64,000 bases of DNA, from assembly GCA_963823555.1 (NCBI GenBank), contig CAWGMA010000003.1, positions 352,001-416,000 on the forward strand, written 5' to 3'. Positions 14,989 through 64,000 of the stretch are shown here, in pieces. How positions within the stretch are numbered: position 1 is the first letter of the stretch; each line of letters opens with the position of its first letter. The position numbers and the translations under genes were made by a program. Source of the DNA: Candidatus Eiseniibacteriota bacterium. Its GTDB lineage: Bacteria; Eisenbacteria; RBG-16-71-46; CAVPCR01. The notes under the pieces are model-generated. The model was not told the origin of the DNA. It ran no database searches and worked only from the letters and a program-made list of their open reading frames with translations.

Positions 14989-16776
14989 ATGATCCGTGCG
15001 ACCACTGCGTCACTCATTGTCATGGCGGTCGTCACCGCGACCGTCGTCGGCGCCGTCGCTCCCGCCATGGCCTTCTTCGCCGCCGATTTCGAGCAACGCT
15101 GGTTCGCTCTGCCCGACGGCCTGATCACGGATCACACCGTCATCCGCGACCCAAGCGGTGCCTTCCATCTCTTCTACACGGTGGGCATTGCCGGCCAGGG
15201 CTGGCCGCATCCCGGGAACATGATCGACTTCGGCCACGCGACGTCGACCGACCTCATCCACTGGACGGATGCGCCGCGTGTCCTGCACACGGCGGAGAGC
15301 GGGTGGAAGAGCCGGAACCTGTGGGCGCCTCATGTCATCGCCTCGCCCACGGGGGGCTACTTCCTCTATTACACGGGGGTGGATTCTTCGCTCACGCAAG
15401 CGGTCGGAGCAGCCTTCTCGCTGGATCTCTACAACTGGATCGACTACTCGGTCGATGCTCCCGCCTATCATCCCGATCCAGCCTGGTCAGCCTGGCGGCC
15501 GGGCATCTGGTCCGATGGTCGCGATCCCTTCGGCTTCCGTCTCGGCAACGGCACGGCGCTCCTCGCCACGGCGCTCGCCAGCGACCTCTACACCGGCGTC
15601 GGCGTTCGCGGGGCGATCGCGCTCGCCTATTCGAGCGATGGCGTCAACTTCGTCGATGTCGGGGCCCCGCTCTTCATCAACAACACGAATCGCACGCTCG
15701 AATCGACGAGCCTCTTCCGCCGTCCGGATCGCTACTTCCTCTTCTTCCACGAGTCGGGAGTTCCAGGCGTCCACTACATGCACTCTCCAGCGCTCATGAG
15801 CGGCTGGGACAAGACCCAGGCGCAGGTGCTCGATCCGCTCGCCTTCGGGCCGACCGAGGTGGTGTCGGCCGGTGACGCCACCTTCATGGGGCGCTGCTAC
15901 GACGCGGATCACTCCGGCACGGTCATCTACGGCGCCAAGTTCGACAGCCTCAGATGGACGAGCGACCGGGTCACGTTCTCCAGCACGAACACCCTGTGGA
16001 GCGGTTGGAGCGCCGAGGGTGACGCCTTCGAGTACCAGCCCGTGTTCGGTGACCGTCCATTCGCTCGCGGCGGCCAGCCCTCCGGCGAGGAGGGCTGGTT
16101 CTGGATTCATACCGCCGAGACCTATACCGGGCCCATCCACAACAACGACCCGGGTGCGCCGCCCGAGTTCGAGCGGACCGGCGTCCTGCGTTCCGCACCC
16201 TTCACCGTGACCGGGGGGCACCTCGCGTTCAAGATCGCGGGTGGCAACGATCCCGACCACCTCTACCTTGCGCTCGTCGACGCCGGGAGCGGGGAGGTCC
16301 TCCGGCGCGCCAGCGGCAACGATTCGAATGAGCTCGTCGAGCGCGCCTTCGATCTCGCCGGGCTCGAGGGTGAGCTCTGCCGGATCGAGATCGTCGACGA
16401 CAGCGCGGCCGGACCGCATGGGTACATCGCCGTCGATTCCATTCGCGAGGGCGAGGGCGAGCCGCCGGTCGGGATCGCCGATGAGGCCGCTCCGGTCATG
16501 GCACCGCTCCTCGGCGCCGTCTATCCGAGCCCGACCACCGGCCCCGCCGCCGTGCCCTTCGCGCTCGCCCGGGAGGGCGAGGTGCGGATCCTCATCTACG
16601 ACGTGAGCGGGCGGCTCCGGAGGCGGCTCGTCGACGGGCGCCTGACGGCGGGGCGCCACCGCGCGCACTGGGACGGCACGGATGCCACCGGACAGCGAGT
16701 TGCGGCTGGGGTCTATTTCCTGCGGATGGAGACGAGCGCGGGAGCTGCGACGCGCCGCATCACCGTGGTTCCCTAG
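14989..16776 (+). CDS. Secreted five-bladed beta-propeller glycoside hydrolase-like (GH32/GH43 clan) protein with C-terminal FlgD-Ig domain
   Basis: Signal peptide; GHATSTDLIHW, LWAPHV, GRDP; C-terminal IYDVSGR..WDGTD..GVYF. Confidence 0.7.
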   Translation: MIRATTASLIVMAVVTATVVGAVAPAMAFFAADFEQRWFALPDGLITDHTVIRDPSGAFHLFYTVGIAGQGWPHPGNMIDFGHATSTDLIHWTDAPRVLHTAESGWKSRNLWAPHVIASPTGGYFLYYTGVDSSLTQAVGAAFSLDLYNWIDYSVDAPAYHPDPAWSAWRPGIWSDGRDPFGFRLGNGTALLATALASDLYTGVGVRGAIALAYSSDGVNFVDVGAPLFINNTNRTLESTSLFRRPDRYFLFFHESGVPGVHYMHSPALMSGWDKTQAQVLDPLAFGPTEVVSAGDATFMGRCYDADHSGTVIYGAKFDSLRWTSDRVTFSSTNTLWSGWSAEGDAFEYQPVFGDRPFARGGQPSGEEGWFWIHTAETYTGPIHNNDPGAPPEFERTGVLRSAPFTVTGGHLAFKIAGGNDPDHLYLALVDAGSGEVLRRASGNDSNELVERAFDLAGLEGELCRIEIVDDSAAGPHGYIAVDSIREGEGEPPVGIADEAAPVMAPLLGAVYPSPTTGPAAVPFALAREGEVRILIYDVSGRLRRRLVDGRLTAGRHRAHWDGTDATGQRVAAGVYFLRMETSAGAATRRITVVP

Positions 16777-55168: not shown

Positions 55169-56583
55169 AACCCAGGGAACTGACGCGGGCGCTCCGCTTC
55201 TCGGTCCTCGACGGCTGCGCCTACTCCTTCATGGCCGGCGGGGCCGAGTCGTATCTGACGGCGTTCGCCGTCCACCTCGGCGTTCCGCCCTATCAGGTCG
55301 GGCTCCTGAGCTCCGTGCCGCAGCTTGTTGGAGCAGCTGCGCAATTATTGACGCCGTTCGGCGTGCGCCTGGTGCGCGGGCTCAAGCGCTGGGTGGTGGG
55401 CCTCGCCACCCTGCAGGCGCTCCTCCTGGCCTCGGTGGCGCTCGTGCCTCTCGTCTCCGGACCCGCATTCCCGCCGCTCCTCGTCCTCCTCACCGGCTAC
55501 TGGACCGTGGTGCTCGCCATCGGCCCGGCGTGGACGCACTGGATGGCGCTCCTCGTGCCCGCCGATCGACGCTCGACCTACTTCGCGCGGCGGAACCTCT
55601 GGGTGAACGTCTGCATGGTGGTCGCGCTCGCCGGCGGGGGCGTGGCCCTCGAGCGCGCCGCCCGCGCCGGTGCGGCCACCGCCGGCTTCGCCGGGCTCGT
55701 GATCTTCGGCGCCGCCATGCGCCTGGTCTCGGTGGTCTTCCTCTCGCTCCAGGCCGGACCGGCGGTCAAGGAACTCAAGCGCGCCGAGACCTTCGTCACC
55801 TTTCTCAAGAATCTGCGCCATAGGAGAGAAGTTCGCCTCCTGCCTTTCCTGTGGGCGATGAACTTCGGGGTCATGATCGCGGCTCCCTACTTCGTTCCCT
55901 ACATGCTCAAGGATCTCGGGCTCTCCTACTGGACCTTCATGGTGATCAACGCCACGGCGTTTCTCTCGAAGTCGCTGGCGATGGGGCTCTGGGGGCGGCT
56001 GGCGCGCCGCCTCGGCCCGCGCCGGGGCTTCGCGCTCGCCGCGCTCCTCATCTCGCCGGCCCCGGCGCTGTGGGCCCTCTCGAGCGAGCTACATCATCTC
56101 CTGGTCTTGCAGGTGTTCTCCGGGTTCGCCTGGGCCGGGTTCGAGCTCTGCCAGCTTCTCCTCTTCTATGAGTTCGTCGACGAGGACCGGCTCTCGGACG
56201 CCTTCAGCTATCACAGCCTGGTCAACGGTTTCGCCATGCTGGCCGGAACCGCGCTCGGGGGAATCTTCATCGCCCATCCGTTCCTGTTCCATAGCGGGTA
56301 TCACGAGGTCTTCGTGCTGTCGACGGCGGTGCGGATCTTCCCGATCATCACCATCTTCCCGACCTTGCGCGGGCTCGCCATCCGCCACGTGCGGCCGCCC
56401 GTGACGCGGGTGATGGGGCTCCGGCCCGGGCTCGGGAGCCTGACCGCGCCGTTCTGGTTCCTGACGACCGCCGGGGGGCGAGCGATCGAGCGGCGGCGGG
56501 CGCGCATCGCAGCCCGGCGGCGGGCCACGGAGGTCGATCCGGGTCGAGCTCCTGGCGAAACGGACGGTGACACAAAAGGTTGA
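55165..56583 (+). CDS. MFS transporter
   Basis: ~12 TM segments; WGRLARRLGPR loop motif. Confidence 0.85.
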   Translation: MKPRELTRALRFSVLDGCAYSFMAGGAESYLTAFAVHLGVPPYQVGLLSSVPQLVGAAAQLLTPFGVRLVRGLKRWVVGLATLQALLLASVALVPLVSGPAFPPLLVLLTGYWTVVLAIGPAWTHWMALLVPADRRSTYFARRNLWVNVCMVVALAGGGVALERAARAGAATAGFAGLVIFGAAMRLVSVVFLSLQAGPAVKELKRAETFVTFLKNLRHRREVRLLPFLWAMNFGVMIAAPYFVPYMLKDLGLSYWTFMVINATAFLSKSLAMGLWGRLARRLGPRRGFALAALLISPAPALWALSSELHHLLVLQVFSGFAWAGFELCQLLLFYEFVDEDRLSDAFSYHSLVNGFAMLAGTALGGIFIAHPFLFHSGYHEVFVLSTAVRIFPIITIFPTLRGLAIRHVRPPVTRVMGLRPGLGSLTAPFWFLTTAGGRAIERRRARIAARRRATEVDPGRAPGETDGDTKG

Positions 56584-56701
56584 GTCGTTGACGCAGGCGC
56601 AGCGCGGGCATACGATTTTCCTGTGTGGGGCCAGCATGGCCCTGGCGGCCGCGCCCGGCGGCGCGGCTGCCAACATCCCCGTGACGGAAGGGGAGTGCCC
56701 C

Positions 56702-57322
56702 ATGGCCGCGGATTCTGGGATCGCACCCAGCGCGGACTCGAACGGGGCCGCCGGGGTCACCGGCGGTGGGGCGTTGCTGCGCCCCGATGACATCCTTCGC
56801 CCCGCCGGCCCCGACGAGCGCTGGACCCTCCTCTACACGCGCTCCCGTTGCGAGAAGATCCTCGGTCGGGCCTGCGCCCGGCTCGGCATTCGCCATTATC
56901 TTCCGCTCCAGCCGCACTCGACCTTCACCGGACGGCGCCGTGTCTACGCGCTGCCGCTCTTTCCGAGCTATCTCTTCGCCTGCCTCGATGAACACGCGCG
57001 TCTCGACGTGCTGCAGACGAACGTCGTCGTGCATGTCTTCCGCGTCGACCGGCCGGATGTGATGCTCGATGAGCTGCGGCAGATCCGTCAGGCGCTCGCG
57101 GCAGGAGCAGAGCTGACGGTGGGTCCGGAGCTCGGGCGCGGCGATCTCGTGCGTGTCGTGCGCGGCCCGCTCGCCGGTCTCGAGGGATACGTGCTCATGC
57201 GGCGGCGGCGGGCCGGGTGCCCGCGCCTCGTGCTCAATGTCTCGATCCTCGGGCAATCGGCCGCGACCGAGATCGATCCGTTCGATGTGATTCGCGTCGC
57301 CGAGGGCGCGCGGGCCGCCTGA
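56702..57322 (+). CDS. NusG paralogue (UpxY/RfaH-like antiterminator)
   Basis: NGN domain WTLLYTRSRCEK...PLFPSYLF; KOW GDLVRVVRGPLAGLEG; start uncertain. Confidence 0.88.
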   Translation: MAADSGIAPSADSNGAAGVTGGGALLRPDDILRPAGPDERWTLLYTRSRCEKILGRACARLGIRHYLPLQPHSTFTGRRRVYALPLFPSYLFACLDEHARLDVLQTNVVVHVFRVDRPDVMLDELRQIRQALAAGAELTVGPELGRGDLVRVVRGPLAGLEGYVLMRRRRAGCPRLVLNVSILGQSAATEIDPFDVIRVAEGARAA

Positions 57323-58850
57323 GGAAGTGGAAATCGCCTGATGGAGAAGCCGCGGGCGTGAAGCGCCGCCCGCCCCGACCGTGAGTCCGTCCGGTCCTCC
57401 ATCCGGCCCGGTCCCCGGTAGCGGGCAGGTTCGGCCTGCCGGTGAAGGGGACGGAGTCCGCCCGGGGAGCGAGCGCTGGTCGATCGGTGGAGGCGGGCGC
57501 CGCGAGGGCCACCTCGGCGGATGGACGCAGGCGAACGACGCCGGCCGAGGTTTCGCCGAGACGAACGCGCACCGGGTCCGCGAGGGGATCGATGAACACG
57601 CGCCACAACCAGGCGCCGCGACGGCTCGGGTGGTTCAGGCGACGCTCGGCTTCGGCGACGGGGATCCCGAGGAGGCTGAGGTAGGGGCCGAGCGCCTCGC
57701 GATCCGGGATCTCGAGGATCTCCTCGACCGTGATCATGAGTTCCGCGGTGAGCGGTGGCGCGCCCTGGGGAGCGGTTGCGGTGGGCATGAGCAGGAAGTG
57801 ACGGGCGACGGGCATCGGTCGGGGAGCCGTGGCGATGAGGCCGCCCTTCCTGAGGAGCAGCCCCTCGCCGCGCGCACGGAGGGCCGCAATCGCCTCGGGA
57901 ATCTCGCGTAAGGCGTAGGTGACAAGGAGTCTCGGGCCGACGGGCTGGCCGGAAGGAGCGAGCGTGGGCGGGCTCGATGCGGGAGGCAGCATCGTGAGCG
58001 GGCTCGTCGCGAGCTCCGCTTGCGGCTTCGCGAGGTGCGTGTAGCGCGTGGTGGTGTTGACGCTCGTGTGACCGAGCAGCGCCTGGATGACACGGAGATT
58101 GGTGCCGGCCTCGAGGAGGTGGGTGGCGAAGCTGTGACGGAGGGTGTGTGGCGTGGCCCGGCCTTCGAGCCTGGCCTTGACGACCGCCGTCGTGAACGCG
58201 CGCTGCGCCGCCCGCTCGGTCAGGTGGCCGCGACGATGCGGGCGATCCGCGCGTCGCGCTCCCAGGAACAGCCACTCGGAGCCCGGGCGCCCGGCGGAGA
58301 TCCTGTCGAGGAGGGGAAAGAGGCAGGCCGGGAGCAGCGAGAAGCGATCCTTCCTGCCCTTCCCCTGGCGGACTCGGATCTGGCCGCGATCGGTGCTGAG
58401 ATCCGCGATGCGAAGACGAACCGCCTCACCGATCCGAAGTCCCGAAGCGTACATGATGCCGAAGAAGAGGCGGTAACGTGGATCCTCGAATGCGGCGAGC
58501 AGTCGGAGCACTTCATCCCTGGAGAGCACGTGCGGGGCGACACGCTTCTCGCGCATCGGAGGCAGGCTCCCTCCCAGTTCGCGGTTGAGCACCGAGCGAT
58601 AGGCGAAGCGAACCGCGTTCCGGGCGAGCCGCATCTTGCTGGAGCCGTCCTCGCTGGTGTTGGCCACGGCCAGCAGGTAGTCGCGGATGTCGTCCTCCGT
58701 CACATCCTCGGGCGCCTTGCCAAGCGAGCCGAGAAAACGGCGCAGTGAGCCGAGATAGGTCTTGATGGTCTTCCTGCTGAAGCGACGGAGGAGCATCTCG
58801 TCGCGGACCGCATCGAGGAAGGGTTGGAGTTCGGTCCTGGGCGCTCGCAC
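57234..58850 (-). CDS. Integron-associated tyrosine recombinase (IntI-like, lacking IntI insertion) with C-terminal DUF1802-like extension
   Basis: N-terminal SAM-like R.FS.KTIKTY; YASGLR, KGRKDR, HTLRHSFATHLL, LGH..TTTRYTH; divergent from the cassette array. Confidence 0.88.
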   Translation of the reverse strand: MRAPRTELQPFLDAVRDEMLLRRFSRKTIKTYLGSLRRFLGSLGKAPEDVTEDDIRDYLLAVANTSEDGSSKMRLARNAVRFAYRSVLNRELGGSLPPMREKRVAPHVLSRDEVLRLLAAFEDPRYRLFFGIMYASGLRIGEAVRLRIADLSTDRGQIRVRQGKGRKDRFSLLPACLFPLLDRISAGRPGSEWLFLGARRADRPHRRGHLTERAAQRAFTTAVVKARLEGRATPHTLRHSFATHLLEAGTNLRVIQALLGHTSVNTTTRYTHLAKPQAELATSPLTMLPPASSPPTLAPSGQPVGPRLLVTYALREIPEAIAALRARGEGLLLRKGGLIATAPRPMPVARHFLLMPTATAPQGAPPLTAELMITVEEILEIPDREALGPYLSLLGIPVAEAERRLNHPSRRGAWLWRVFIDPLADPVRVRLGETSAGVVRLRPSAEVALAAPASTDRPALAPRADSVPFTGRPNLPATGDRAGWRTGRTHGRGGRRFTPAASPSGDFHFLRRPARPRRRESHRTDRSRSRPIARGSRH

Positions 58851-59024: not shown

Positions 59025-59175
59025 TAGAGCCCGTTTCGGCAGCCCCTGGCAAAAGCGAACCGGCCGAAGCTTAGTGATTGGTTCGGAAGCGGTTGAGAGG
59101 AGTGGGCCGGACCTGCAGCAGTGCCCCAACAGTCGGCCTGAATGCCCTTCCTCAACCGACCTTCGCCAATGGGCA

Positions 59176-59182
59176 GTTAAGC
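59176..59182 (+). other. attI-like core site G/TTAAGC (first cassette junction)
   Basis: Cassette A starts here as in the other copies, but the upstream sequence is not the attC right arm. Confidence 0.75.
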
Positions 59183-59660
59183 GCAGCTACGGGTCTTCGT
59201 TGAGCGCCGTGCCATTGGGGCTTGGGAGAGGTTCCGGGCGCAGCGACGGGAGCTTCGTTGTGGCAAGAGAAGGGTCCATGAGTCCCGTTGCGAGGCTTGA
59301 TCGGGAGCGCTGCGAACGATCGCTCGCCGTCTGAAGCTCGTGCCGCCCGGGCTTGAGGCACGCGTTTTGGGCGGAGAGTGCGCTGGTGTAGCCAGCTCCC
59401 GCCGCTCGTGCTTCGGCGAGGAAGAAGTGGGGAGAGGTGTAACGGTAGGGGCGGAGTTCAGGAGAGCCGAGATTTCTGGGAGTTGTCGGGAGAGGGCGTC
59501 GTCGCTGCGCCTAACGCGCGGCTAGGCGGCTCCGCTCGCTGCGCTCGCTTCGCGCAACCCGGCGCTTTCCGTCACGGCGCTTGCCGTGACGGGCGCGCTG
59601 GAGTCGACCTTGCTGCGGCAAGCGCCGCGCCGGGCGCCGGGTTCGCCAGCCGCGGTATCG
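59177..59660 (+). mobile_element. Cassette 1: gene-less cassette A (full) plus attC
   Basis: 333 bp from core G to GCCTAAC; near-identical to copies at 60995, 61488 and 63842. Confidence 0.85.
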
Positions 59661-59666
59661 TTAAGC
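59509..59666 (+). repeat. attC-like site 1 (158 bp)
   Basis: GCCTAAC...CGCCAGCCGCGGTATC-GTTAAGC imperfect palindrome. Confidence 0.85.
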
Positions 59667-60064
59667 GCAGCTACGGGAGTCCCGTTGCGAGGCTTGATCG
59701 GGAGCGCTGCGAACGACCGCTCGCCGTCTGAAGCTCGTGCCGCCCGGGCTTGAGGCACGCGTTTTGGGCGGAGAGTGCGCTGGTGTAGCCAGCTCCCGCC
59801 GCTCGTGCTTCGGCGAGGAAGAAGTGGGGAGAGGTGTAACGGTAGGGGCGGAGTTCAGGAGAGCCGAGATTTCTGGGAGTTGTCGGGAGAGGGCGTCGTC
59901 GCTGCGCCTAACGCGCGGCTAGGCGGCTCCGCTCACTCGCTGCGCTCGCATCGCTTCGCCCAACCCGGTCGTCCGTCACGGCGCTTGCGGCCGGGGCGGG
60001 GTTGAGGTTCACCTTGCTGCGGCAAGCGCCGCGCCGGGCGCCGGGTTCGCCAGCCGCGGTATCG
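59661..60064 (+). mobile_element. Cassette 2: cassette A with 87-bp internal deletion plus attC
   Basis: ctacggg joined directly to agtcccg. Confidence 0.85.
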
Positions 60065-60070
60065 TTTTGC
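59906..60070 (+). repeat. attC-like site 2 (165 bp)
   Basis: GCCTAAC...GGTATC-GTTTTGC. Confidence 0.85.
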
Positions 60071-60154
60071 GGCAAGCGAGAGCAGACCATTCGCGAACAC
60101 TAAGAAGCACTACCAGCCAGCAGCGCAGCCTGCTGGGACCAGGGAGCACAGTCT

Positions 60155-60819
60155 GTGAGTAACTTGCCCGCACGTCGCGTGGCATCCTTGCCAGCCGCGA
60201 TCCTGCTCGTTGCGGTTGCCGGCTCTGCCCCAGCGCAGGACATTGTCATTGAGGCCGAGTTCTACCCGACCTGGGCCTGCTTCCCGACCAATGGCGCAGA
60301 GTCTCACCGTCCGATTCTCTGGCATCCTCGCTTACATCCACCGACCCCTTGCCGAAGTGCTCGCAGCATTCCCTGATGAGTGGGAGCGGGAAACCACGCA
60401 TCCGTGTTGGTCTGGATGTTCGACCGCCCGGTTTGCGGCTTCGCTTCGCCAACAGCACCTCCATATATCCCCCTTACATTCCAGGATACGTCGAGCGTCT
60501 GACGTTCGAGCCGCAACCTCCGGTCACAGTCGATTCCGTTCATGTGAATTGGTACCCCTTGCCAGGACAGGAGTCCCCTCCTTTCACGTTCTTTCCACCT
60601 TCATGCATGTTCGTCCTCGACGCTGATTCACAAGTCCTAGTCAATGCCGACGCCGTCATCAACTTGGTCGGAGTATACGCCTCTCTTGGCGGATACCATT
60701 GCTGTTTGGGGCTCGGAGGTGGGAATCTCCTGACGTTGCTCTCCATGACGAAGGCGTCACCATGCCTAATCGCAGTCGAGGAAGCCACGTGGGGGGCAAT
60801 CAAGGCCACATGGAAATGA
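60155..60819 (+). pseudogene. Cassette 3 (B): secreted protein ending in TWGAIK motif, apparently frameshifted
   Basis: Signal peptide in the 60155 frame; C-terminus VEEATWGAIKATWK in the 60349-60819 frame; lower GC. Confidence 0.6.
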
Positions 60820-60840
60820 TGATGTTGCCATTCGCTTGCC

Positions 60841-61000
60841 GCATAACACGCGGCCTGGCGGCTCCGCTCGCTGCGCTCGCTCCGCTGCAACCCGGCGCCT
60901 TCCGTCACGGCGCTTGCCGTGACGGGCAGCGCTGGAGGTTCCTCTTGCTGCGGCAAGCGCCGTGCCGGCGCCGGGTTCGCCAGCCGCGGTATCGTTAAGC
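60841..61000 (+). repeat. attC-like site 3 (160 bp)
   Basis: GCATAAC...GGTATC-GTTAAGC. Confidence 0.85.
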
Positions 61001-61487
61001 GCAGCTACGGGTCTTCGTTGAGCGCCGTGCCATTGGGGCTTGGGAGAGGTTCCGGGCGCAGCGACGGGAGCTTCGTTGTGGCAAGAGAAGGGTCCATGAG
61101 TCCCGTTGCGAGGCTTGATCGGGAGCGCTGCGAACGATCGCTCGCCGTCTGAAGCTCGTGCCGCCCGGGCTTGAGGCACGCGTTTTGGGCGGAGAGTGCG
61201 CTGGTGTAGCCAGCTCCCGCCGCTCGTGCTTCGGCGAGGAAGAAGTGGGGAGAGGTGTAACGGTAGGGGCGGAGTACAGGAGAGCCGAGATTTCTGGGAG
61301 TTGTCGGGAGAGGGCGTCGTCGCTGCGCCTAACGCGCGGCTAGGCGGCTCCGCTCACTCGCTGCGCTCGCATCGCTTCGCCCAACCCGGTCGTCCGTCAC
61401 GGCGCTTGCGGCCGGAGGCGGGGTTGAGGTTCGACCTTTCTGCGGCAAGCGCCGCGCCGGGCGCCGGGTTCGCCAGCCGCGGTATCG
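60995..61487 (+). mobile_element. Cassette 4: gene-less cassette A (full) plus attC
   Basis: Near-identical to cassette 1 body. Confidence 0.85.
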
Positions 61488-61493
61488 TTAAGC
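61327..61493 (+). repeat. attC-like site 4 (167 bp)
   Basis: GCCTAAC...GGTATC-GTTAAGC. Confidence 0.85.
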
Positions 61494-61980
61494 GCAGCTA
61501 CGGGTCTTCGTTGAGCGCCGTGCCATTGGGGCTTGGGAGAGGTTCCGGGCGCAGCGACGGGAGCTTCGTTGTGGCAAGAGAAGGGTCCATGAGTCCCGTT
61601 GCGAGGCTTGATCGGGAGCGCTGCGAACGACCGCTCGCCGTCTGAAGCTCGTGCCGCCCGGGCTTGAGGCACGCGTTTTGGGCGGAGAGTGCGCTGGTGT
61701 AGCCAGCTCCCGCCGCTCGTGCTTCGGCGAGGAAGAAGTGGGGAGAGGTGTAACGGTAGGGGCGGAGTTCAGGAGAGCCGAGATTTCTGGGAGTTGTCGG
61801 GAGAGGGCGTCGTCGCTGCGCCTAACGCGCGGCTAGGCGGCTCCGCTCACTCGCTGCGCTCGCATCGCTTCGCCCAACCCGGTCGTCCGTCACGGCGCTT
61901 GCGGCCGGAGGCGGGGTTGAGGTTCGACCTTTCTGCGGCAAGCGCCGCGCCGGGCGCCGGGTTCGCCAGCCGCGGTATCG
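61488..61980 (+). mobile_element. Cassette 5: gene-less cassette A (full) plus attC
   Basis: Tandem copy of cassette 4. Confidence 0.85.
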
Positions 61981-61986
61981 TTATGT
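61820..61986 (+). repeat. attC-like site 5 (167 bp)
   Basis: GCCTAAC...GGTATC-GTTATGT. Confidence 0.85.
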
Positions 61987-62024
61987 GCCCTGCACACCTG
62001 ACCATTGGGAGAAAGGGACTCGAC

Positions 62025-62732
62025 ATGAGGCCTCGCGCTAGCGCGCTCATCATCTCTATTCCTCTGCTTGTCTCGTTGGCGCTCTTCGTTCCCTCCTGCG
62101 GGGACGATGATGGCCCCGCGGCTCCCGATCTCGCCAGCGCTTACCTCATTCAAGCAACCCTCGTGCTCAGCACGGAAACTGCCACCGTCGCCGTCTCCCG
62201 CCTCGATGCCAGCGACCCTTCGGCTGCCACTGCTGTAGTCCTGCTCGATGGTCACGGCATGCAGCACTCGGCAAACAACACACCAGACCAGGCAACCTTC
62301 CTGTCGCAGGTTCCCACGAATCCCGGCCACGCCTACGCCTTTTCCGTCACCGTCGACGGCGTCAGCGCCTCAGGCACCCTCGCTACTCCTGATCAGCCAT
62401 GCACGGTTGCCATCACGCAACCGCCGCCTGGGAATCTGACGTTCTCGTCGGGCACCGATCTCGCTCTTCAATGGGAATACGTCGGCTCCGAACCAGGGGA
62501 GTTTGGCGTCTTTGGATCGAGTGTCGCCTTTCCCCCTCGCGTCTTCTCAGATACTCTACAGGCGAGTGCACGGTCGGCCGTTGTCGAGACATCGCAGTGG
62601 TCGCTCGCATCCCAGGTGTTCCTGCGAGTCACGGCCCGGACACGAGCGGAGATCTCCGGAGACCTTGCTGCCCCAACAAGCTCATCATTTGTTGACTTCG
62701 CTACATCGGAGGTCATTCTCACCCGTAGGTAG
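62025..62732 (+). CDS. Cassette 6 (C): hypothetical lipoprotein (235 aa)
   Basis: AAAGGGA RBS; MRPRASALIISIPLLVSLALFVPS-C lipobox-like; stop ~20 bp before attC. Confidence 0.8.
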   Translation: MRPRASALIISIPLLVSLALFVPSCGDDDGPAAPDLASAYLIQATLVLSTETATVAVSRLDASDPSAATAVVLLDGHGMQHSANNTPDQATFLSQVPTNPGHAYAFSVTVDGVSASGTLATPDQPCTVAITQPPPGNLTFSSGTDLALQWEYVGSEPGEFGVFGSSVAFPPRVFSDTLQASARSAVVETSQWSLASQVFLRVTARTRAEISGDLAAPTSSSFVDFATSEVILTRR

Positions 62733-62754
62733 CAGGTCCCCGCGAGTGCAGGGC

Positions 62755-62915
62755 ACATAACACGCGGCCTGGCGGCTCCGCTCGCTGCGCTCGCGTCGCC
62801 CAACCCGGCGCTTTCCGTCACGGCGCTTGCCGTGACGGGGCCGCGCTGGAGGTCCACTTTGCTGCGGCAAGCGCCGTGCCGGGCGCCGGGTTCGCCAGCC
62901 GCGGTATCGTTTTGC
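62755..62915 (+). repeat. attC-like site 6 (161 bp)
   Basis: ACATAAC...GGTATC-GTTTTGC. Confidence 0.85.
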
Positions 62916-62984
62916 GACGGGCGCGTACGGACCTCCATCTTAGCGCATGCGGCTAACACTCCTGTCGCAAGGAGGTGAGATACC

Positions 62985-63659
62985 TTGATCTTTGGCAGTA
63001 ATCTTGGTCTTGCCGGCGTGGCGTTGCTGGCGCTTAGCCTCACCATGCGAGTTGCCGAGGCAGTTGACAACGAGCCACCCACCTGCGATCACGGCGGACC
63101 CTACGAGTGCATTCCCCAGCACGCTGTGGAGTTTGATGGCCGTGGATCCTACGACCCCGACGGTGTCATCGTGAGCTACGTCTGGTCGTTTGGTGATGGG
63201 CACACCGCCACCGGCGCGCTGGTCACGCACAGATACGAGGTCGTCGGCTCCTTCACCGTCGCGCTTCTCGTCACGGATAATGATGACAACTTCAGCGTCT
63301 GCGAGACCATTGCCCGCATCGTCGAACCGTGCCCTGGCAATTGCCCCCCGATCTGCGACGCTGGTGGCCCTTACCACGGCATAGCTGGTGTCCCGATTCA
63401 ATTCGATGGGTCGGGCTCGCTCCCCGTCATCGCTTGCATCCCGCTGGTCCAATTCGCATGGACATTTGGAGACGGGGCGACCGCCGTCGGCCCGCAACCG
63501 CTGCGCACTTACACGACGCCCGGCGACTTCAATATCACGCTCACGATCGTGGACTCTGACGGAGCCACCTCATCCTGTTCCTCCGTCGCAGTGGTTGCGG
63601 AACCCTCTGGAGTCGACCCCACCACATGGGGACGCATCAAGAACACAGTCCTGGAATGA
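62985..63659 (+). CDS. Cassette 7 (D): secreted tandem-PKD-domain protein ending in TWGRIK motif
   Basis: AAGGAGGT RBS, TTG start, signal peptide; two FDG.GS...W.FGDG PKD repeats; VDPTTWGRIKNTVLE. Confidence 0.85.
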   Translation: MIFGSNLGLAGVALLALSLTMRVAEAVDNEPPTCDHGGPYECIPQHAVEFDGRGSYDPDGVIVSYVWSFGDGHTATGALVTHRYEVVGSFTVALLVTDNDDNFSVCETIARIVEPCPGNCPPICDAGGPYHGIAGVPIQFDGSGSLPVIACIPLVQFAWTFGDGATAVGPQPLRTYTTPGDFNITLTIVDSDGATSSCSSVAVVAEPSGVDPTTWGRIKNTVLE

Positions 63660-63689
63660 CCTTCACGGCAGGACTCTCCCGTGTCCGTC

Positions 63690-63847
63690 GCAAAACACGC
63701 GGCCGGCGGCTCCGCTCGCTGCGCTCGCTTCGCCTAACCCGGCGCTTTCCGTCACGGCGCTTGCAGTGACGGGCCGCGCTGGAGTCCATCTTGCTGCGGC
63801 AAGCGCCGTGCCCGGCGCCGGGTTCGCCAGCCGCGGTATCGTTAAGC
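63690..63847 (+). repeat. attC-like site 7 (158 bp)
   Basis: GCAAAAC...GGTATC-GTTAAGC. Confidence 0.85.
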
Positions 63848-64000
63848 GCAGCTACGGGTCTTCGTTGAGCGCCGTGCCATTGGGGCTTGGGAGAGGTTCC
63901 GGGCGCAGCGACGGGAGCTTCGTTGTGGCAAGAGAAGGGTCCATGAGTCCCGTTGCGAGGCTTGATCGGGAGCGCTGCGAACGACCGCTCGCCGTCTGAA
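63842..64000 (+). mobile_element. Cassette 8: gene-less cassette A (truncated by window end)
   Basis: Matches the first ~160 bp of cassette A. Confidence 0.85.

Follow-up and report, generated by a model that had tools for sequence, protein, structure and literature searches.

Beside a tyrosine recombinase gene near the end of the window, by which is meant the whole stretch of 64,000 nucleotides of Candidatus Eiseniibacteriota DNA analysed here, lies an array of tandem gene cassettes in which the two ends of a cassette are complementary to one another over a median of 16 bp. On balance, we favour the view that recombinase and array represent a second class of integron, in which a recombinase without the insertion characteristic of the integron integrase IntI acts on folded single-stranded sites, and in which a cassette-specific outer arm of 15-16 bp together with a 4-nt loop on the cleaved strand replaces the extrahelical-base/I2 contact. 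Extension of the pairing past the core is already known and that part of the finding is ordinary; the new part is the extra stem length and the partner enzyme.

The whole array covers ~22 kb (contig C3, 411176-432854) and consists of tandem cassettes bounded by 22 related palindromic hairpin sites, running from AAC to GTT, with a G|TT crossover. An earlier, sequence-only reading had claimed that every cassette is bracketed by its own inverted repeat reaching far beyond a 7-bp core. The four pairs that it quoted were recovered at their positions (A, 11/12; B, 14/15; C, 16/16; D, 15/17), those of A and B reaching further, to 14/16 and 15/16, respectively. The claim held for all seven complete cassettes of the window, four of which are copies of A, so that A, B, C and D are the only four distinct ones, but it did not extend to the entire array, where 13 of 19 distinct cassettes have stems of 15-17 bp, five have 11-14 bp and one has 5 bp. 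In this count the five A copies were merged and one long unit past the window, which is two cassettes fused without an intervening hairpin, was split in two; stem length is a single anchored score allowing a single-base bulge. The weakest cassette, pairing over 5 bases only, shares its first 21 bases with the next cassette and may thus be a chimera. The features of the window are as follows.

57234..58850, minus strand: tyrosine recombinase of 538 aa, IntI-like (Pfam PF13495 and PF00589)
56567..57322, plus strand: NusG/UpxY-like gene, context, oriented as the array (Pfam NusG E 2.7e-7; UpxY model 67 bits against a cut-off of 100)
59155..59178, plus strand: probable attI, crossover G|TT at 59176, where the first cassette begins without a hairpin upstream
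59176..59515, plus strand: cassette A copy 1, apparently non-coding (arms 59176-59191 and 59500-59515, 14/16; longest open reading frame (ORF) 44 aa)
59513..59662, plus strand: attC-like hairpin 1, AAC to GTT, 150 bp
59660..59912, plus strand: cassette A copy 2, with an internal deletion (arms 59660-59675 and 59897-59912, 14/16)
59910..60066, plus strand: attC-like hairpin 2
60064..60847, plus strand: cassette B (arms 60064-60079 and 60832-60847, 15/16; ORF 60349-60819, without a Pfam match)
60845..60996, plus strand: attC-like hairpin 3
60994..61333, plus strand: cassette A copy 3 (14/16)
61331..61489, plus strand: attC-like hairpin 4
61487..61826, plus strand: cassette A copy 4 (14/16)
61824..61982, plus strand: attC-like hairpin 5
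61980..62761, plus strand: cassette C (arms 61980-61995 and 62746-62761, 16/16; ORF 62025-62732, without a Pfam match)
62759..62911, plus strand: attC-like hairpin 6 (the bottom strand of 62740-62930 is predicted to fold, z = -3.7)
62909..63696, plus strand: cassette D (arms 62909-62925 and 63680-63696, 15/17; PKD-domain ORF 62985-63659)
63694..63843, plus strand: attC-like hairpin 7
63841..64000, plus strand: cassette A copy 5, start only; the array runs ~17 kb past the window

The pairing has a sharp outer edge, the match rate in the 18 units with a matched core falling from 0.83 at position 16 to 0.22 at position 17. Seven or more matches at positions 8-16 are seen in 16/19 of the cassettes, against 22 of the 6758 GTT..AAC pairs that lie outside the array. 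When ends were permuted among the 18 distinct cassettes (as counted before the long unit was split), the number of matches at positions 8-16 averaged 73.5 and never exceeded 105 over 100,000 shuffles, where 129/162 were observed. Positions 9-16 are nearly free in sequence yet conserved in pairing, with information of at most 0.58 bits and a pairing rate of 0.78-0.94, and GCG is found at arm positions 6-8 (in 35, 37, and 41 of 42 arms) as well as in both attI left arms, that of this genome (G000) and that of a second genome of the same genus (G027).

The arms open exactly at the G of the G|TT crossover and close at AAC, and are therefore the two halves of an R arm that meet when the cassette is circularised; the earlier suggestion that each unit had existed as a circle with a matched site is consistent with this, since the arms would be the R-arm halves of the circular cassette. 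We incline, with no great margin of confidence, to regard the ~16-base arms as the split halves of the cassette's own outer (R) arm, which the neighbouring insertion-less recombinase would bind as a duplex. The split arm would re-form in the circular cassette, the bottom strand of which would fold and recombine with the adjacent attI, by analogy with integrons; the arm would then be split at insertion, and every such event would favour well-paired arms. The 4 bp gained relative to classical cassettes would reflect an R-side need of this recombinase class rather than folding energy.

A 16-bp match might also be a by-product of the making or repair of cassettes, either because an arm is copied in the folded single-stranded circle or because new genes are placed inside an existing arm pair, in which case the outer pairs would be needless for recombination. 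The sharp edge between positions 16 and 17 fits such an origin, as do unrelated cassette bodies with similar arms in which the differences affect both sides together, homologous cassettes of G027 with two-sided changes at positions 4, 6, and 9, and the dispensability of pairs 13-16 for the predicted fold. However, two-sided changes are equally what selection at insertion would produce, and a candidate enzyme for the copying did not come to light. Chimeras whose ends do not match have also survived (two in G027, recognised by aligning their bodies, and one likely in G000), meaning that arm copying is not automatic. We consider a by-product origin rather doubtful.

The stems of classical integron cassettes do not share this length distribution, their median being 9 against 16 here. 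The sequence-only reading was thus right that pairing past the 7-bp core is longer in this array, but the extension itself had been published: according to Bouvier 2009 (PMC2727003; papers given by PMC number are cited from excerpts), most ordinary cassettes pair with themselves past the 7-nt R boxes, over 9-11 consecutive nt. Within one array, R' need not match R'' (PMC5371416), and the excerpts of PMC8876359 and PMC3053210 contain nothing about stem extension. Neither longer stems nor an insertion-less class were described in the titles and abstract starts searched, most subscription papers being outside reach.

For canonical chromosomal cassettes the median was 9 (n = 140 from 45 loci, some of the calls spanning a missed site), with stems of at least 13 bp in 8/140 and at least 15 bp in 1/140; the median was still 9 in the 110 cassettes with a matched core. 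These sites were called by interior geometry and a loose core consensus, which gave no calls in shuffled loci. The set derives from 165 calls (74 + 91), less five opposite-strand duplicates and four class 1 rows and with identical ends merged, and holds no array identified as Vibrio or Xanthomonas. Class 1 cassettes, 11 distinct ones kept by hand from 15 plasmid loci after duplicates and four kinds of merged, hybrid or false-boundary calls were dropped, ranged from 8 to 12 bp with a median of 9, five of the 11 having 12 bp and none reaching 15 bp. Class 1 stems (L067-L073, L157) group at 8-9 or 12 bp, and the three with an 8-nt register are all of 8 bp. In G027 the median was 14 (n = 23, from 25 calls less one 7-kb span and one duplicate), and 10/23 stems were of at least 15 bp. 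Guanine-cytosine (GC) content was rejected as a cause of longer stems, as no stem exceeds 14 in the 60 cassettes drawn from canonical loci with more than 60% GC.

A second, canonical integron is present on the same contig (IntI 463 bits, C3:15024-15962; L003, L056), with a co-oriented array of its own. The closest relatives of this IntI (83% and 77%) are from Candidatus Eisenbacteria. The window array could in principle be of the ordinary integron type, with this enzyme acting on it in trans, the neighbouring recombinase incidental and the stems forming the upper tail of the 9-11 nt range; its AAC and GTT cores and toxin-antitoxin-type cargo domains, along with the presence of that IntI, are compatible with such an arrangement. 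Yet the canonical IntI has its own array, of canonical geometry, with stems of 12, 8, and 11 and no blastn match to the array described here, 20/21 sites of which fail the canonical register, and G027, too, has this recombinase, beside a comparable attI end, as well as an array built of such hairpins. Service in trans is therefore highly improbable.

The sites of the window array are 150-167 bp in length and their register lies 3-4 nt away from the canonical one, 17/21 being best at register 12, in which the inner-stem partner is 12 nt from GTT, and 20/21 falling outside the canonical register of 8-9 nt. They lack the canonical R-spacer-L geometry with a spacer of 5-6 nt in each arm and instead have ~1 nt unpaired on one side against 5 nt on the other (a 1/5 offset). 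Integron sites are expected to have an extrahelical G in L'' and a second extrahelical T; here most sites have a one-base bulge of variable identity at positions 7-9, and some have none. An attI-like end, identified by sequence, lies beside the recombinase gene, and a similar end adjoins the recombinase of G027. The repeated cassette A begins at the same G both after attI and after hairpins, and an 8-mer of attI recurs once in the array, at a junction without a hairpin, which ties the array to this attI. The GCG that the attI left arm shares with cassette arms at positions 6-8, in an alignment whose 4-nt spacer register was picked by eye, suggests a shared binding element. A consensus scan for a sigma-70-like site (a Pc candidate) near attI gave none. 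At the hairpin-less junction, which follows the HigB cassette, ~6 bases matching the attI end stand in place of the hairpin, a delta-attI-type junction (L001 ~16040-16060, C3 near 424050).

The recombinase retains the catalytic residues R139, K164, H235, R238, H261, and Y270, and its best solved relative by both sequence and fold is VchIntIA (PDB 2a3v). It scores 208.9 bits against the TIGR02249 model, for which the cut-off is 265, aligning over model positions 1-174 and 216-314 and skipping 175-215. Relative to three IntIs it has a gap of 31 residues, and the distance between motifs is 65 aa, compared with 100-101 in 12 IntIs. The additional domain that is the defining trait of IntI (PMC9668308, PMC2727003) is thus absent from it, and in the tree it falls outside the fully supported (100/100) IntI clade. 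The gene is divergent from the cassette array. A C-terminal extension (window 57237-57935, minus strand) is kept in the G027 protein and absent from the 70% identical P0001; its match to DUF1802 is weak, below the gathering score (E 0.005 here, 2.6e-5 in P0002; atlas 0.84), and is taken as a lead only. In G027 a 67% identical recombinase lies at the end of one contig, which finishes in a similar attI, and another contig opens with an array of the same hairpins; from this we infer that the two adjoin. When hairpin DNA was searched across 206 genomes of the phylum, full-length matches were found in G000 and G027 only, the other 27 being fragments of 21-45 bp.

Insertion-less recombinases were also found in 56 of 301 genomes from the phylum of a Chlorobiaceae genome, the query being a relative from a metagenome locus, and the arrays from that search are here labelled Bacteroidota-type. 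Of 80 metagenome loci with distant relatives of the recombinase (32-41% identity), most were too short and a handful had arrays, only L195 and L239 being counted; with 20 further regions (L313-L332) these gave 36 calls, 35 of them distinct, at 10 loci. The Bacteroidota-type arrays resemble that of the window in having a recombinase without the insertion, the 1/5 hairpin offset and own-end stems of ~15 bp. They differ in that the array is co-oriented with the recombinase rather than divergent, and in position 11, which is almost invariably a bottom-strand G-T there (match rate 0.03) but pairs in the window array (0.94). If a bottom-strand G-T is scored as neutral, the median per locus falls at 14-16 in seven loci without the insertion and at 8-12.5 in 13 canonical ones, and the two ranges do not overlap, although related genomes are not independent and the statistics overstate the difference accordingly. 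Three loci (L059, L207, and L217) were excluded as a different element in which long repeats bracket the recombinase gene itself, a unit of 2.4-2.5 kb lying between similar inverted ends of 14-21 bp amid hairpin-like sites. In L059 a second ORF stands beside the recombinase, presumably transposase-like.

The sequence-only reading had proposed that the longer stem forms only in the excised circle, which fails for tandem copies of A, and that insertion could thereby be favoured over excision. The second effect does appear in fold predictions, but it is common to canonical cassettes: the predicted probability that the core is paired rises from 0.73 in the array to 0.97 in the circle here, and from 0.75 to 0.98 in 62 canonical cassettes. 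A ratchet of this kind, in which extra length is selected because the circular site is far more stable than the array hybrid, would agree with the larger median energy gain predicted from array to circle (6.4 kcal/mol here against 4.6 canonical) and with cores predicted to be paired (P > 0.5) in 21/21 circular and 12/21 array forms. The gain in pairing probability is nevertheless the same as in canonical cassettes, which makes the ratchet general to integrons, and it saturates at 12 bp. Excision, moreover, depends on the arm of the neighbour, so that a longer own stem does not lower it. We judge selection of the extra length by such a ratchet to be unlikely. When stems were shortened in silico, a predicted probability of core pairing above 0.9 was retained in 16/16 cassettes at 12 pairs, 12/16 at nine, 10/16 at seven and none at four; 12 pairs already fold, and folding therefore does not account for pairs 13-16.

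Mismatches of wobble type favour the bottom strand over the top, by 13 to 4 in G000 and G027 taken together and by 31 to 2 in the Bacteroidota-type arrays. This bears, as weak evidence, against the idea that the arms pair in the transcript and flank each gene as an RNA processing stem. That idea would accommodate the fact that in B, C, and D the arms flank the ORF at either end, and the co-orientation of the NusG/UpxY-like gene with the array; the arms have the DNA crossover as their exact starting point, however, and are also carried by the non-coding cassette A and by a cassette with a reversed PIN-domain gene. We regard a role as an RNA stem as extremely improbable.

A number of observations weigh against a second integron class with duplex-bound outer arms. 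When only Watson-Crick pairs are counted, two of the seven insertion-less loci, both Bacteroidota-type, drop to a median of 9, and the tree does not resolve a shared origin of the window recombinase and the Bacteroidota-type ones. The exact family occurs in just two of the 206 genomes. In the predicted hairpin the inner arm spans only ~11 bp, and tyrosine-recombinase arms are usually 9-13 bp (PMC2727003), so that 15 bp beyond the crossover G exceeds the usual footprint. Canonical cassettes also lean towards bottom-strand wobbles (34 against 19) and the bias could be mutational, while one-sided decay is seen in homologous cassettes (two G000/G027 pairs). No recombinase activity, circle or footprint was observed. 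Of 20 public sequencing runs listed in a search for signs of excision or circles, 19 share some words with the array and none as many as half; four runs compared with 20 kb of the array gave short contigs only, with eight joints of 21-33 letters on the short side, too weak to speak for or against excision.

With classical integrons the array has in common the AAC...GTT hairpins, the G|TT crossover, own-end pairing past the 7-nt R boxes, a divergent recombinase beside an attI-like site and cargo of toxin-antitoxin type. It differs in stem length (median 9 there, 16 here, beyond the ~9-11 nt of own-end complementarity known for ordinary cassettes), in the distance of the inner-stem partner from GTT (8-9 nt there, 12 here) and in the length of its sites (150-167 bp against 57-142 nt for classical attC; PMC2727003). 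The recombinase likewise has the Pfam architecture and catalytic residues of integron integrases (IntI1, VchIntIA, TIGR02249), from which it is set apart by the missing insertion, a score below the TIGR02249 cut-off, its place outside the IntI clade and its C-terminal extension. As in the delta-attI-type cassettes of class 1 and 2 integrons (PMC12901181), the hairpin of one cassette is replaced by the last bases of attI, but here ~6 attI bases are kept and the platform is neither class 1 nor class 2. Judged from its sequence, the array would work like an integron while falling outside that group for want of two of its traits, the IntI domain and the canonical geometry of the sites.

As regards the cassettes themselves, A is 340 bp in length and occurs in five copies among the first eight array positions (window 59176-64000, C3 to 416180), with no match in the G027 array. 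In cassette B (window 60155-60819) an ORF of 73 aa overlaps one of 156 aa in another frame, possibly representing one frameshifted gene. Several cargo proteins, including those of B and D, have a similar TWGxIK motif at the C-terminus, and genes ending in this motif were also seen by eye beyond the last hairpin, where they may be former cassettes. Among the domains encoded by cargo genes past the window are HigB, Fic/Doc, PIN, DUF2442, DUF433, and DUF5615. An insertion sequence splits one hairpin (C3 ~426600-428280), the label IS21-like being a sequence reading alone. A search against Rfam gave a single match at chance level, and the hairpin-end pattern had no matches in viral contigs. A NusG-family gene in the orientation of the array stands beside both the canonical IntI and the window recombinase, and as a guess such genes might provide antitermination through the hairpins; for the NusG-like gene of G027, two ORFs tried against Pfam gave no match.

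Stem length by class matters because it separates two systems in one genome, one of 8-12 bp with canonical IntI and one of ~16 bp with an insertion-less recombinase. Tools that require the IntI domain (PMC9668308) would miss the window recombinase as an integron integrase. The origin of integrons has been framed as a chicken-and-egg problem, in which the attC hairpins and the I2 domain would each have had to arise without the other (PMC4792948). If the reading favoured here is true, this system would be a living model of hairpin sites that exist without an I2 domain, and an enzyme that lacks the insertion and has a hairpin geometry of its own would make that problem testable by a standard conjugation assay.

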